A stretch of DNA of 64,000 nucleotides from Gammaproteobacteria bacterium (GCA_963923955.1 OZ000552.1:2182061-2246060), one strand, 5' to 3'; shown: positions 23,684 through 26,646, counted from the first letter of the stretch. Numbers and translations: made by a program. Notes: generated from the sequence alone by a model not told the origin.

Positions 23684-23941
23684 TTAGCCGATAAACATCT
23701 TCCAGAACATGGCCAGGGTGAACGCAAGATTAAAACCGAGCATCCATTTCATTACGCGCACTTCCGAATCAAATTTACCCTCAAGCCTGACTATGTCCAA
23801 CCTGGTGGCTACCTGGGTATCTAATGCCTGCTTGAATGCCTCGCTAACCGCTTCAGATTTCGCCGCAGCGTGTTCTTCAGGTATGCCTGCATCTTTCAAA
23901 CGACGCATAAATTTCAGTGTATCAAAAGTAGCTGTGCCCAT
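23684..23941 (-). CDS. small tail-anchored coiled-coil protein, DUF1640-like, paralog 1 of 3
   Basis: MGTATFDTLKFMRRLKDAGIPEE...RVMKWMLGFNLAFTLAMFWKMFIG. Confidence 0.55.
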   Translation of the reverse strand: MGTATFDTLKFMRRLKDAGIPEEHAAAKSEAVSEAFKQALDTQVATRLDIVRLEGKFDSEVRVMKWMLGFNLAFTLAMFWKMFIG

Positions 23942-23985
23942 AGTTCATTTTCCTCATCAAACGTGCACCTGGCAACAGCGCTTCC

Positions 23986-24273
23986 TTAGCCGATAAACAT
24001 CTTCCAGAACATGGCCAGGGTGAATGCAAGATTAAAACCGATCATCCATTTCATCACGCGCTGCTCTGCCTTCACTTCCTGTATCTCCGCTTTCACTTCG
24101 TGTATCTCCGCCTTCATCTGGTACATATCGGCTTTCGTTGGAACCTGCGAATCCATCGCTTCACTGAGCGCCTCTTTGATTGCCTCAGCCTCGGCTTCCG
24201 CCTGTTTCTCAGGCACATCCGCCGCTTTCAAACGACGCGCAAATTTCAGTGTGTCAAAGGTAGCTGTGCCCAT
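23986..24273 (-). CDS. small tail-anchored coiled-coil protein, DUF1640-like, paralog 2 of 3
   Basis: Conserved N-terminus MGTATFDTLKFARRLKAADVPEKQAEAEAEAIKEAL. Central KAEIHEVKAEIQEVKAEQ internal repeats. C-terminal TM segment. Confidence 0.55.
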   Translation of the reverse strand: MGTATFDTLKFARRLKAADVPEKQAEAEAEAIKEALSEAMDSQVPTKADMYQMKAEIHEVKAEIQEVKAEQRVMKWMIGFNLAFTLAMFWKMFIG

Positions 24274-24337
24274 AGTTCATTTTCCTCATCAAACTTGCAT
24301 CTGGCAGCAGACAGATAGTCAGGGAAATAAAACTCCT

Positions 24338-24604
24338 TTAACTAATAAACATCCTCCAAAACATTGTTACCAGAAAACCCAGCGCAACGCCCAACATCCA
24401 ACCATGAAGCCTTAAGGTCGCCCTAATCGCATCTTGCCCACGTTCTAAGCGATGAATATCTGTTTTCGTTGCCAACTGTGTATCCATCGCTTCGCTGAGC
24501 GCCTCTTTGATTGCCTCGGCCTCAGCCTCTGCCTGTTTCTCAGGCACATCCGCCGCTTTCAAACGACGCGCAAATTTCAAGGTGTCAAAAGTAGCCGTGC
24601 CCAT
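24338..24604 (-). CDS. small tail-anchored coiled-coil protein, DUF1640-like, paralog 3 of 3
   Basis: Same N-terminus as paralog 2. Divergent middle and TM tail (RLHGWMLGVALGFLVTMFWRMFIS). Confidence 0.55.
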   Translation of the reverse strand: MGTATFDTLKFARRLKAADVPEKQAEAEAEAIKEALSEAMDTQLATKTDIHRLERGQDAIRATLRLHGWMLGVALGFLVTMFWRMFIS

Positions 24605-24712
24605 AGTTCATTCTCTCCTCGTCAAACGTGCACTTGCCGGTGCCGAAAACATTACCGGAATGCCCATTGTTCTGGCCCACTTTCCCTGGCGCCATTGTAA
24701 TAATCATCCCAT

Positions 24713-24744
24713 AAAAAAAGGCCACCCGCAGGTGGCCCTTTTTA
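24713..24744. terminator. bidirectional rho-independent terminator immediately downstream of the pilin gene
   Basis: aaaaaaa-ggccacc-cgca-ggtggcc-cttttt. Perfect 7-bp GC stem flanked by an A-run and a T-run. Confidence 0.8.
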
Positions 24745-24763
24745 CGCCTTCAAATGCCAAGAT

Positions 24764-25180
24764 TTACTTACAGGCGCTCGGCAGATATTTCCCGTCAAGC
24801 TCGCTAGAGCATTCCCATGTGGAGCCATACTCCGCACCCTCTAATGTAATCGTCTTCCCTTTGATGGCGGCGCTCACGCCCGTATCCTTAAACGTGGCGG
24901 TGATGGTCGGGTTAGTGGCCGTACCACCGACTTCAATACTCCCTACATACTTGCCGCTTTTGGTAAAGCTCAACTCATCCGTGGCAGGTATAGTGCCCTT
25001 ATCACCAATCCACTCGGCCAGCGGCGTCTTGACACCAGAGGTCAGCGTCATGGCTTCTGAGACCTGCGCCCGGGCGATGTAGTCCTGATAGGACGGGATG
25101 GCAACCGCCGCCAAGATGCCGATAATCGCCACCACGATCATCAGCTCGATCAATGTAAAGCCTTGTTGTCTCTTGTTCAT
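24764..25180 (-). CDS. pilA: type IV major pilin (type IVa, PilA/PilE class)
   Basis: MNKRQQGFTLIELMIVVAIIGILAAVAIPSYQDYIARAQVSEA prepilin leader and N-terminal helix. C-terminal disulfide loop C...C and Thr/Ser-rich surface region. Confidence 0.9.
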   Translation of the reverse strand: MNKRQQGFTLIELMIVVAIIGILAAVAIPSYQDYIARAQVSEAMTLTSGVKTPLAEWIGDKGTIPATDELSFTKSGKYVGSIEVGGTATNPTITATFKDTGVSAAIKGKTITLEGAEYGSTWECSSELDGKYLPSACK

Positions 25181-25255
25181 GAATTTCTCCTAGATTGATG
25201 TTGCGACCAGGCGCAACGAAAAACGATTTACCTTTAAACTACGGGCATTATATTA

Positions 25256-25271
25256 CGCATAATCTATGCCA
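25256..25271 (-). promoter_or_regulatory. putative sigma54 (-24/-12) promoter of the pilin gene
   Basis: Minus-strand TGGCAT-agatt-ATGCG has GG/GC at the correct 11-nt spacing, about 75 nt upstream of the pilin ATG. TGTC/GACA repeats at 25400-25425 could be the PilR enhancer. Confidence 0.4.
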
Positions 25272-25444
25272 TAAGCCACTATTATTCTGCGAGGCGGAAT
25301 TTTTTTAATAAGTAATTGTTTTTGTTGGAGAAATATATTTGCCTGATTGTTTCGGGGCGGGGTGAGGTTGGGCTGATGACGCCGAGAGGGAGGTAAGAAA
25401 CAGACAAAACTGACAACTTTTGTCAGTTTTTTTGGGATGTTAAG

Positions 25445-25612
25445 TTAAAGGTATAGCTTAACCACTGCTACGATGGCCAAGGTAACCGTTGCGCCGACAA
25501 TAGCTGGATACCAACGATTCTCTGCATTGATTTTGCTTGTCTCTGCCATTAACTTGGCTATCTCGGCCTGAATTTTATCGTGTGATAATTCCTCAATCTT
25601 TGTTGTATTCAC
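25445..25612 (-). CDS. small tail-anchored protein, family S paralog 1 (55 aa, GTG start)
   Basis: GGAGG-7nt-GTG, then (M)NTTKIEELSHDKIQAEIAKLMAETSKINAENRWYPAIVGATVTLAIVAVVKLYL. Below the ORF-track length cutoff. Confidence 0.45.
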   Translation of the reverse strand: MNTTKIEELSHDKIQAEIAKLMAETSKINAENRWYPAIVGATVTLAIVAVVKLYL

Positions 25613-25669
25613 TTCAATTCCTCCTTAAAAGCGCTGGACGGGTATTTACCATCGTATTTATCAGATCGC

Positions 25670-25882
25670 TTAAAAGTATAGCTTGGCGATTGCTGCGGCA
25701 CCGAGTGCGGCCGTGCCGCCGGCTACGATGAGTGATGCACCCACGACCAGAGGATACAGCATTGTCTCTTTTCGCATCTTCTCAATCTCGGCAAAGATCT
25801 TGGCAATCTGGGCTTGCATTTTCTCATGTCGCAGGTTTTCCTTCTCATACCGTAGATTTTCATCAATGTTTCTTGTACTCAT
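25670..25882 (-). CDS. small tail-anchored protein, family S paralog 2
   Basis: AGGAGG RBS. ...AQIAKIFAEIEKMRKETMLYPLVVG... and C-terminal TM ending KLYF. Confidence 0.45.
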   Translation of the reverse strand: MSTRNIDENLRYEKENLRHEKMQAQIAKIFAEIEKMRKETMLYPLVVGASLIVAGGTAALGAAAIAKLYF

Positions 25883-26016
25883 TCCTATTCCTCCTTAAAA
25901 GCGCTGGACGGGCGTTTACCATCTTGCTCAAGCTGAACCTACTGGATTAAGGATAGTATCTCTAAAAGCGCTGATCAAGTCTGTCTTGGGACTGGTTCAG
26001 GGGATCCTTAGGATCG

Positions 26017-26247
26017 CTAAAGGTATAGCTTGGCCACGGCGACAATGGCCAGGGTAACCGTTGAGCCGACAATGAACGGATACCATCTGTTCTCGTTATC
26101 GATCTTTCTTGTCTCGCTTCTCGCCTTGATGGTTTCTTCAATCGTCTTTTGATTCTCCGTTCGCATCTTCTCAAGCTCGGCAAAGATCTTGGCAATCTCC
26201 GCCTTAATCTTCTCATGTGTTACTTCTTCAATCTCTTTTGTACCCAT
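26017..26247 (-). CDS. small tail-anchored protein, family S paralog 3
   Basis: MGTKEIEEVTHEKIKAEIAKIFAELEKMR...NENRWYPFIVGSTVTLAIVAVAKLYL. Confidence 0.5.
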   Translation of the reverse strand: MGTKEIEEVTHEKIKAEIAKIFAELEKMRTENQKTIEETIKARSETRKIDNENRWYPFIVGSTVTLAIVAVAKLYL

Positions 26248-26305
26248 TTCAATTCCTCACTTAAAAGCGCTGGACGGGCATTTGCCATCGTATTTATCAG
26301 ATCGC

Positions 26306-26494
26306 CTAAAGGTATAGCTTAACCACTGCTACGATGGCCAGTGTGACGGTTGCGCCAACGATAGCTGGATACCAACGATTCTCTGAATTAATTTTAATCG
26401 TCTCTGAATTGATTTTGCTTGTCTCTGCCATTAACTTGGCTATCTCGGCCTGAATTTTATCGTGTGTTAATTCCTCAATCTTCGTTGTATTCAT
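26306..26494 (-). CDS. small tail-anchored protein, family S paralog 4
   Basis: MNTTKIEELTHDKIQAEIAKLMAETSKINSETIKINSENRWYPAIVGATVTLAIVAVVKLYL. Near-identical to paralog 1 apart from an inserted 7-aa repeat. Confidence 0.5.
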   Translation of the reverse strand: MNTTKIEELTHDKIQAEIAKLMAETSKINSETIKINSENRWYPAIVGATVTLAIVAVVKLYL

Positions 26495-26646
26495 TCCAAT
26501 TCCTCCTTAAAAGCGCTGGACGGGCGTTTACCATCTTGCTCAAGCTGAACCTACTGGACTAAGGATAGTATCTCTGAAAGCGCTGATCAAGTCCATCACA
26601 GGACTTGTTCAGATCTTCCTTATATGCCGACAGCGCGGCATCAGGC

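Follow-up and report, generated by a model that had tools for sequence, protein, structure and literature searches.

Two gene arrays around the pilin gene

The DNA analyzed here is a stretch of 64,000 nucleotides from a Gammaproteobacteria bacterium (GCA_963923955.1 OZ000552.1:2182061-2246060; below, the window), and our subject is a type IV pilin locus on its minus strand in which pilA, the gene of the major pilin, stands between two arrays of genes for very small membrane proteins, termed families S and D. The gene order is pilS, pilR, S1–S4, a terminator, pilA, a second terminator, D1–D3, a GT-C/TPR gene, and a gene for a family 2 glycosyltransferase (GT2). Upstream of pilA lie S1 (26306..26494; 62 amino acids, with a long N-terminal helix and a C-terminal membrane helix), S2 (26017..26247; 76 amino acids, with an expanded coiled coil), the divergent member S3 (25670..25882; 70 amino acids), and S4 (25445..25612; 55 amino acids), which has a GTG start and represents the core form of the family. 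Downstream lie D1 (24338..24604; 88 amino acids), D2 (23986..24273; 95 amino acids), and D3 (23684..23941; 85 amino acids), all three DUF1640/CCDC90-like. A first-pass annotation had described these seven open reading frames (ORFs) as two arrays that flank the pilin gene, each gene with its own ribosome-binding site, and both statements were confirmed: all seven were recovered on the minus strand at these positions, with AAGGAGG before each S gene and a GAGGA-type site 5' of each D gene. The motifs that had been quoted for the two families are present as well, with the exception of the tail of S3, which diverges (ETMLYP, with a longer hydrophobic segment).

Within the window, tblastn comparisons gave E-values of 1e-8 to 1e-30 among the S proteins and of 1e-21 to 1e-33 among the D proteins, and paralogy within each family is far beyond chance. 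Further copies of S or D were not detected by tblastn anywhere in the 64 kb, including the surroundings of pilB, pilC, and pilD at 43817-47710; a weak D-like match at 2549-2737 overlaps an unrelated 216-aa ORF in antisense and was set aside as a chance match. When codons are compared, D1 and D2 show nine synonymous and zero non-synonymous changes over codons 1–41 and diverge sharply beyond, the last 23 codons of D2 and D3 are near-identical, and S1 and S4 are distinguished by two replacements and one 7-codon indel. This pattern is the mark of purifying selection together with either gene conversion or unequal crossing-over, and D2 is chimeric, with a head of the D1 type and a membrane anchor of the D3 type. 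Tandem repeats of 21 nucleotides, corresponding to one heptad, are found in D2 (24064-24116, the KAEIHEVKAEIQEVKAE repeats that had already been noticed), in S1 (26380-26427), and in S3 (25821-25861). The description of the arrays as recombination mosaics with conserved ends and divergent middles therefore stands on the codon comparison of D1–D3 and of S1 and S4. The further idea that the variable middles reflect a diversification of cassettes specific to this locus is not supported, since both families have coiled coils that vary in length throughout and not at the window locus alone.

The S genes also have repeated leaders (25613..26646, minus strand), which became apparent in a DNA alignment: all S starts are preceded by an invariant block of ~40 nucleotides, GATGGTAAAyGCCCGTCCAGCGCTTTTAAGGAGGAATTG, which includes the AAGGAGG site; an extra block of ~100 nucleotides is common to S1 and S3, and a short version is common to S2 and S4. 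The S array is closed by a terminator-like hairpin with an 11-bp stem and a subsequent T-rich tail (25406..25430, minus strand). The pilA gene (24764..25180, minus strand) encodes a type IVa major pilin of 138 amino acids (Pfam Pilin, E 9e-24; N_methyl, E 1e-11) and is directly followed on its 3' side by a GC-rich, strong Rho-independent terminator hairpin, GGCCACCCGCAGGTGGCC, with A/T runs on both sides (24720..24737, minus strand). Because these hairpins separate the S array, pilA, and the D array, the locus appears to form three transcription units, with read-through possible at each hairpin. A candidate for a sigma-54 type −24/−12 element upstream of pilA, TGGCATagattATGC (25257..25271, minus strand), keeps the GG-N10-GC spacing, but we did not retain it as a promoter, as it is a weak match of a level that is common by chance.

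Architecture of families S and D

The D proteins had been called DUF1640-like, and profile matches as well as the β-layer motif bear this out. The family PF07798 (CCDC90-like, formerly DUF1640) has a model length of 175 positions and a gathering cut-off of 33.5 bits; D2 scores just below this cut-off with 33.2 bits (E 6e-8), followed by D1 with 28.0 bits (E 2e-6) and D3 with 20.7 bits (E 4e-4), and the precomputed database annotation places PF07798.17 on D2 and D1, not on D3. Our search for D relatives returned 185 homologues, mostly of 80-100 amino acids, one of which (P0035) reaches 38.2 bits and thus exceeds the cut-off; D3 matches the D profile with an E-value of 3e-36. In the alignment of the homologues, a conserved head (TFDTLKF..RLK.AGVPE.QAEAEAEA) is followed by the motif QLATK.D, a highly length-variable stretch, and an anchor that is again conserved (WMIGFNLAFTMA.LWK.F). 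DUF1640 proteins have been described as membrane proteins of prokaryotes and organelles, in which a β-layer motif, [aliphatic]-A-T-K-[polar]-[DE], starts the C-terminal stalk (Hartmann et al., PMC4786415). This motif is exact in D1 (LATKTD) and carries one to two substitutions in each of D2 (VPTKAD) and D3 (VATRLD). In the AlphaFold2 model of D2 (pLDDT 81), helices 8-17 and 22-41 are followed by a break at 42-46 and by a continuous helix 47-94 that ends in WMIGFNLAFTLAMFWKMF, in agreement with a coiled-coil stalk that continues into a C-terminal transmembrane helix. D is a short bacterial form of the DUF1640/CCDC90-like proteins, with which D1–D3 share the two-helix N-terminal head, the β-layer, the variable coiled-coil stalk, and the C-terminal membrane helix, and from which they differ by their shorter length (85-95 amino acids versus the 175-position model) and by scores that, taken alone, are at or below the gathering cut-off. 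The "variable middle" of D is the ordinary variable stalk of this family. Matches to PHROG 17872 and 6701 lead to families annotated without function, and neither sequence searches nor Foldseek gave anything significant for D2 in the PDB.

For S1–S4, no Pfam or NCBIfam family was found. A word-indexed search identified 27 relatives of 53-80 amino acids, and a profile search of 1.84 billion cluster representatives extended this to ~630 representatives at E<=1e-3, with 139 at E<=1e-10; S1, S3, and S4 match the profile with E-values of 3e-30, 2e-22, and 8e-33. The best 150 of the 630 relatives range from 42 to 147 amino acids, many of them with two or three repeated profile matches. The core of ~54 amino acids can be written as x7-L.HDKIQAEIAKLIAETSKINNENRWYP-IVGSTATLAIVAIVKLFL, and AEIAKL.AETSKIN heptads are duplicated in longer members. 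In the AlphaFold2 model of S2 (pLDDT 76), two helices, 3-53 and 56-75, are joined by a kink at WYP. S1–S4 match PHROG 6330, a phage family with no assigned function (E 2e-11 for S2, 2e-8 for S1, and 3e-8 for each of the other two), and identities of 40-70% connect S proteins of Alpha-, Gamma-, Epsilon-, and Deltaproteobacteria, with the long hydrophilic helix conserved. S is a previously undescribed, unannotated family that consists of one long helix, the WYP kink, and a C-terminal membrane anchor, and its general design is as in D. A comparison of the S and D profiles with hhalign gave a probability of 5%, that is, no detectable relationship.

Regarding topology, a signal peptide is absent, the chain ends only 3-5 residues beyond the anchor, and in D the anchor has basic residues in front of it; on these grounds, an N-in orientation with a cytoplasmic coiled coil is predicted.

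Mobile elements and pilin loci as genomic settings

The S family was surveyed with one genome per species, which yielded 62 loci (739 kb) from Gamma- and Alphaproteobacteria, together with one from an Arcobacteraceae and one from a Desulfobulbaceae member, most of them with a single copy. No conserved partner gene of S was found in these loci; the commonest neighbors belong to Rhodobacteraceae synteny or to backbones of integrative and conjugative elements (ICEs; SSB, YAcAr), with some MazEF. S genes reside on mobilizable plasmids of Paracoccus, Pantoea, and Arsenophonus, and on one of Citrobacter, where S adjoins traD/mobA. In Neisseria gonorrhoeae, S adjoins a prophage integrase, and in the Bordetella avium prophage IFTN8, the one direct phage homologue, it lies between an integrase and an XRE regulator. 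A scan of IMG/VR detected no relatives of S. A filamentous phage setting was found in a 2.41-Mb metagenome-assembled Gammaproteobacteria genome (locus L012), where an S gene (14738-14902) is part of an integrated phage, in a module divergent from the structural genes. This phage (L012:7355-15533, ~7.8 kb) encodes Zot (8773-9573), a Gp8 coat protein (11315-11614), and G2P (13310-14437), and has perfect direct repeats of ~350 nucleotides at its ends. A second S gene (7983-8171) precedes a degenerate third copy of the repeat (8569-8741), which suggests a remnant of an earlier insertion of which the S gene alone was retained. The window contains no inovirus core genes, and the repeats of its S array have no DNA similarity to the L012 inovirus repeats.

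Relatives of D are found directly in viral genomes, with 95 in IMG/VR, where the neighbors include lysozyme, baseplate hub, antirepressor, KilA-N/Bro-N, integrase, and SSB genes. Zot is adjacent to D in two of these contigs: in L172, whose Zot matches that of the L012 phage (E 1e-37), and in L193. The latter (IMGVR_UViG_3300025107_000044) is an inovirus-like contig of 6.5 kb that carries D (6001-6246) and also a toxin–antitoxin-like pair (4423-4719/4722-4949), so that this filamentous-phage niche collects both kinds of cargo. In Bordetella phage IFTN6, the D homologue is the lone opposite-strand gene in the early region. Our survey of D covered 80 metagenome loci (416 kb), 14 of which have two to seven copies each; their flanks are led by toxin–antitoxin genes (RelB, Phd, ParE, HicA, YoeB, DUF4160/DUF2442), then by N_methyl pilins, and MobA and replicase genes occur as well. 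DUF1640 genes have also appeared in published notes on prophage regions of Liberibacter and on small plasmids of the MOBQ type, there beside mobA/traD. Judged by these phage, plasmid, ICE, and toxin–antitoxin settings, S and D are cargo of the flexible genome, typically in "moron" or lysogeny-module positions.

The first-pass annotation had proposed a link to pilin loci, and this was upheld in part: D lies beside pilins in several lineages and S in three related clusters and in one further locus (L004), and most members of both families are found elsewhere. Pilin genes occur in 5 of the 80 D loci versus 1 of the 62 S loci, and for an assumed one to four pilin loci per Mb the enrichment at D loci has a Poisson P of 7e-5 to 0.03, a statistic that hangs on this assumed background and on contigs that are possibly not independent. 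In L071, the closest relative of the window locus, pilA is followed by two D genes (79% nucleotide identity for the orthologue of D3) and then by matching GT-C/TPR and GT2 genes, with a synteny of ~75-81% nucleotide identity. In L099, pilB and pilC precede two pilins, after which come three D genes; L111 has pilA, a gene for a 288-aa membrane protein, and then D; and in L149 (1556-2535), pilA is followed by a D gene cut to 39 codons by a hicA/hicB insertion and then by an intact D gene. In L098, D is divergent from two pilins, after which a 551-aa membrane/TPR protein is encoded that is weakly related to the 640-aa protein of the window (the GT-C/TPR gene product); in L093, D closes a minor-pilin cluster; and in L004 it lies upstream of a ComP-like pilin. 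A strong hairpin separates the pilin gene from the next gene in the window and in L071, L099, L111, and L149. At least four lineages thus have D in the slot that follows the pilin terminator. The same layout—pilin, terminator, accessory gene—has been described for pilin-accessory cassettes (PMC11841053), and D in this slot may be an unrecognized type of pilus accessory or anti-phage gene.

Two details of these D loci deserve mention. In L099, each of the three D genes has its own GC-rich terminator-like hairpin in front of it (6940-8018), and such hairpins would predict a stepwise attenuation along the array. In L149, one terminator hairpin is duplicated and precedes both D copies.

The history of S at pilin loci is a different one. 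Four S copies lie inside the fimU-pilVWX-pilY1 operon of L004, and the closest homologue of S2 (73% identity) was found in L158, immediately behind GT2 in the cluster that corresponds to that of the window. A neighborhood comparison with relatives, which the first-pass annotation had suggested as a check, gave a divided answer: D is kept behind pilA in L071, and the S array is replaced there. The pilR–pilA interval of L071 holds, instead of an S array, a frameshifted S pseudogene, with 53% identity to the inovirus-borne S of L012, and a member of a third family. S thus occupies three different positions of one cluster among relatives (window, L071 pseudogene, L158); its link to pilins is lineage-restricted, and S is retained in the cluster with rapid turnover.

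In the third family, which we term T, a membrane helix at the N-terminus is combined with a coiled coil of variable repeats (RLSNMEEK- or MRGLEGRLQE-type), and the C-terminus, HLEGLLEGLREAIV.RA, is conserved. Its members lie on the plus strand at L071:8133-8438 and at L070:10342-10809, 11037-11243, and 11468-11752. The three genes of L070 form a tandem array right after D, inside an O-antigen/glycosyltransferase cluster. Searches of T against Pfam gave no family, and generic coiled-coil matches only.

Among the neighboring genes of the window, the pilS-like sensor kinase is a 535-aa ORF (27999..29606, minus strand) whose syntenic counterpart in L071 has the domains PF25323 6TM_PilS, HisKA, and HATPase_c. 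The pilR-like sigma-54 activator is a 485-aa ORF (26647..28104, minus strand); its L071 orthologue has 441 amino acids, with Response_reg, Sigma54_activat, and HTH_8 domains and ~75% nucleotide identity, and the true start of pilR may lie downstream of the annotated one. Behind the D array follow the 640-aa polytopic membrane protein with a TPR-like C-terminus (21675..23597, minus strand), which has the same place after the D genes in L071, and the GT2 glycosyltransferase (20812..21678, minus strand; PF00535, E 5e-25), whose L158 orthologue has 70% identity and is the one directly followed by S. The 640-aa protein gave no match in Pfam and none in a PDB sequence search; its family comprises >3,400 homologues, some of which carry the JGI names "protein O-mannosyl-transferase" or "TPR repeat protein", and it may be a pilin O-glycosyltransferase of the GT-C type. 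Next to this pair, a DUF354-like gene appears to lie in pieces (19741-20775, minus strand), with 113 amino acids at 20434-20775, 143 amino acids at 19741-20172, and short ORFs between; L071 has a single 514-aa ORF at this place, and the fragments are probably a pseudogene of the pilin glycosylation cluster. On the other side, a sucC-containing block beside pilS (window 30060-37525, compared with L071:3-4728) is inverted or relocated, which shows that the surroundings of the pilSR–pilA cluster have been rearranged. The plus strand at 41006-48342, ~19 kb from pilA, carries clpB and then pilB, pilC, pilD, and coaE, with no small coiled-coil genes associated. Rfam and tRNA scans of the window returned nothing.

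Possible roles and comparison with known systems

What could such proteins do beside a pilin gene? The notion of a single dedicated pilus module that the first-pass annotation had put forward is not supported, since S and D are unrelated, are mostly carried by phages, plasmids, ICEs, and toxin–antitoxin islands, and since the S array is replaced in L071; for a signaling partnership with PilS we found nothing in support. The explanation that we tentatively prefer, with a probability of roughly 45%, is that S and D are captured accessory proteins of phage type that act at the inner membrane, either on pilus function or on pilus-dependent phage infection. In this model, two unrelated small inner-membrane families of one design, a predicted cytoplasmic coiled coil with a single C-terminal membrane helix, would have been cargo of temperate tailed phages, filamentous phages, mobilizable plasmids, and ICEs, and would have been captured into variable accessory slots around pilA: S between pilR and the pilA promoter, D behind the pilA terminator and ahead of the putative pilin glycosylation pair. 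The arrays could then have grown by tandem duplication, slippage of 21 nucleotides (one heptad), and gene conversion, and read-through of the pilA terminator would couple the expression of D to that of the pilin. From the cytoplasmic face, the proteins may act on the pilus machine, or on the entry or assembly of pilus-dependent phages, and could correspond, on the chromosome, to the proteins by which phages exclude superinfection, PfsE among them. The predicted orientation supports this, as the platform and the motor ATPases of the pilus would be reachable from the cytoplasmic side.

Type IV pili are common receptors of filamentous phages. This use of pili, the precedent of PfsE, and the presence of S and D in divergent, non-structural inovirus modules are what points to pili or pilus-dependent phages as the target. 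PfsE of Pf phages is a small inner-membrane protein that binds PilC, suppresses pili, and prevents superinfection (PMC8764522); another phage inhibitor of type IV pili, Tip, is mentioned alongside it.

Several observations weigh against a role at the pilus. Pilus genes are absent from the vicinity of about 60 of the 62 S loci and of most D loci, and the enrichment of pilins at D loci has the dependence on background and contigs given above. The S array is lost or decayed in the closest relative L071, which implies that S is dispensable for the pilus. Neither S nor D has similarity to PfsE-type motifs, no copies of either family lie near pilBCD in the window, and PADLOC gave no meaningful match. 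Most of the D-carrying phages are tailed phages. Pilin loci, moreover, are hot spots of horizontal exchange, and the adjacency to the pilin gene is therefore possibly passive.

That last point can be developed into an explanation of its own, the main rival, in which S and D are passive hitch-hikers: mobile cargo would pile up at a pilin recombination hot spot, much as in toxin–antitoxin islands and O-antigen clusters, with a role independent of pili, perhaps as a generic membrane scaffold. We regard this as possible, and it would account for the prevalence of toxin–antitoxin, mob/rep, and transposase-like genes among the neighbors of D, for the L070 O-antigen/glycosyltransferase cluster that holds D together with three copies of T, for the hicAB insertion that truncates D in L149, for the majority of S and D loci without pilus genes, and for the pilR–pilA interval that is wholly replaced between the window and L071 although its flanks have ~75-80% nucleotide identity. 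It does not readily explain why D is co-oriented with the pilin gene and immediately behind its terminator in at least four separate lineages, why S is found at three sites of one ~10-kb cluster in relatives and four times in a minor-pilin operon, or why the copies are under purifying selection. If the genes are mere hitch-hikers, the locus is a clear case of pilin islands that gather and reshuffle mobile-element cargo.

A bolder extension of the preferred explanation, which we consider doubtful, would unite S, D, and T as an unrecognized, phage-derived class of coiled-coil proteins in the inner membrane, by which the machinery of the type IV pilus would be tuned or blocked. Phages would carry them for superinfection exclusion, bacteria would have domesticated them as tandem, recombining arrays at pilin loci against pilus-dependent phages, and the variation in stalk length and the gene conversion would be the trace of an arms race.

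It is unlikely that D, and perhaps S, are host accessory proteins in the manner of TfpX, TfpY, or TfpZ that help the cognate pilin to be assembled or glycosylated efficiently, for instance as a scaffold for the GT-C and GT2 enzymes. Known accessory genes occupy this position behind an attenuating terminator, the interval from pilA to the GT-C/TPR–GT2 pair contains D in both the window and L071, and in L098 a pilin pair is followed by the weakly related 551-aa membrane/TPR protein, with D alongside; in addition, MCUR1 and CCDC90B, the eukaryotic relatives of D, are described as membrane scaffold factors. However, the copy number of D varies (three in the window, two in L071, a single one in others), both families are abundant on phages and plasmids without pilus genes, and the D genes of L099 and L149 have no adjacent GT-C gene. 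The pilin glycosylation by GT-C enzymes is a periplasmic process, whereas head and stalk of D are predicted to be cytoplasmic.

Two other proposals concern S only. The S array resembles the repeats of type I toxins (ldr, ibs/sib, hok) in its tandem units for small products with one hydrophobic helix, its invariant leader of ~40 nucleotides, and its repeated intergenic blocks, and toxin–antitoxin genes are frequent in the neighborhoods elsewhere; S proteins might then be membrane-damaging peptides whose leaders are controlled by antisense or cis-acting RNA. This is very unlikely, as S has a long hydrophilic, coiled-coil-forming helix that is conserved across proteobacterial classes, Rfam has no family that fits the leaders, their folds are no more stable than those of shuffled sequences (z −1.2 to +0.4), and promoter-like sites in the array are not above chance, with none antisense. 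That S proteins are miniature ElaB/YqjD-type stress proteins that tether ribosomes to the membrane, as the first-pass annotation had considered, is least probable of all, since they share with ElaB, YqjD, and YgaM the general topology of an N-terminal helical domain and a C-terminal anchor and differ in sequence and in genomic context: no DUF883 match appeared at E<=1 in Pfam or at all in NCBIfam, the S profile retrieves only small unannotated proteins, and the genomic contexts of S are mobile elements, not stationary-phase regulons.

Returning to capture of phage-type accessory proteins as the preferred explanation, the significance of the locus depends in part on its correctness. Type IV pili are major phage receptors as well as organelles of virulence and motility, and to our knowledge, very few pilin accessory genes have been recognized, and equally few pilus inhibitors that phages encode. 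If S and D modulate pili or exclude phages, they would represent a new and easily testable class in pilus regulation and phage defense, and would open a route to the function of MCUR1 and CCDC90B relatives in prokaryotes. Beyond this, the widespread bacterial and phage DUF1640 proteins obtain a first reproducible genomic association, namely with the accessory slot that follows pilin genes and, in phages (also filamentous ones), with the lysogeny module, and S is defined as an unannotated small-protein family of ~630 clusters with design and niches as in D.

Among known systems, the phage-borne pilus inhibitor PfsE (PA0721) is comparable as a small inner-membrane protein encoded in a filamentous prophage, with S in the L012 inovirus and D in L172 and L193 as the parallels. 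PfsE has ~30 residues and a YxWGW motif, whereas S proteins of 53-80 amino acids have a long coiled coil and an ENRWYP motif; both S and D lack YxWGW and are 2-3 times longer, and the inovirus setting alone is shared. With respect to DUF1640/CCDC90-like proteins, D1–D3 stand out by their organization as a tandem mosaic array behind a pilin gene, a context that was mentioned in none of the literature that we found. The closest parallel in gene arrangement is provided by the pilin accessory cassettes of Pseudomonas aeruginosa, in which pilA is followed by tfpO, tfpW/tfpX, tfpY, or tfpZ. As in these cassettes, D lies directly downstream of the pilin gene, co-oriented and behind a Rho-independent terminator, the locus is variable among relatives, and glycosyltransferase genes are part of the same cassette; this position applies to D in the window, L071, L099, L111, and L149, and not to S, which is located upstream of pilA. 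The difference lies in the products, as D and S are very small, consist of a coiled coil and one membrane helix, occur in multiple copies, and are mostly found on mobile elements, and a homology of D to TfpO, TfpW, TfpX, TfpY, or TfpZ is unlikely, judged from size and architecture (a coiled coil of 85-95 amino acids). The cassette logic of a pilin gene, a terminator, accessory genes, and neighboring glycosyltransferases is thus already known, and it is the gene content that is new.

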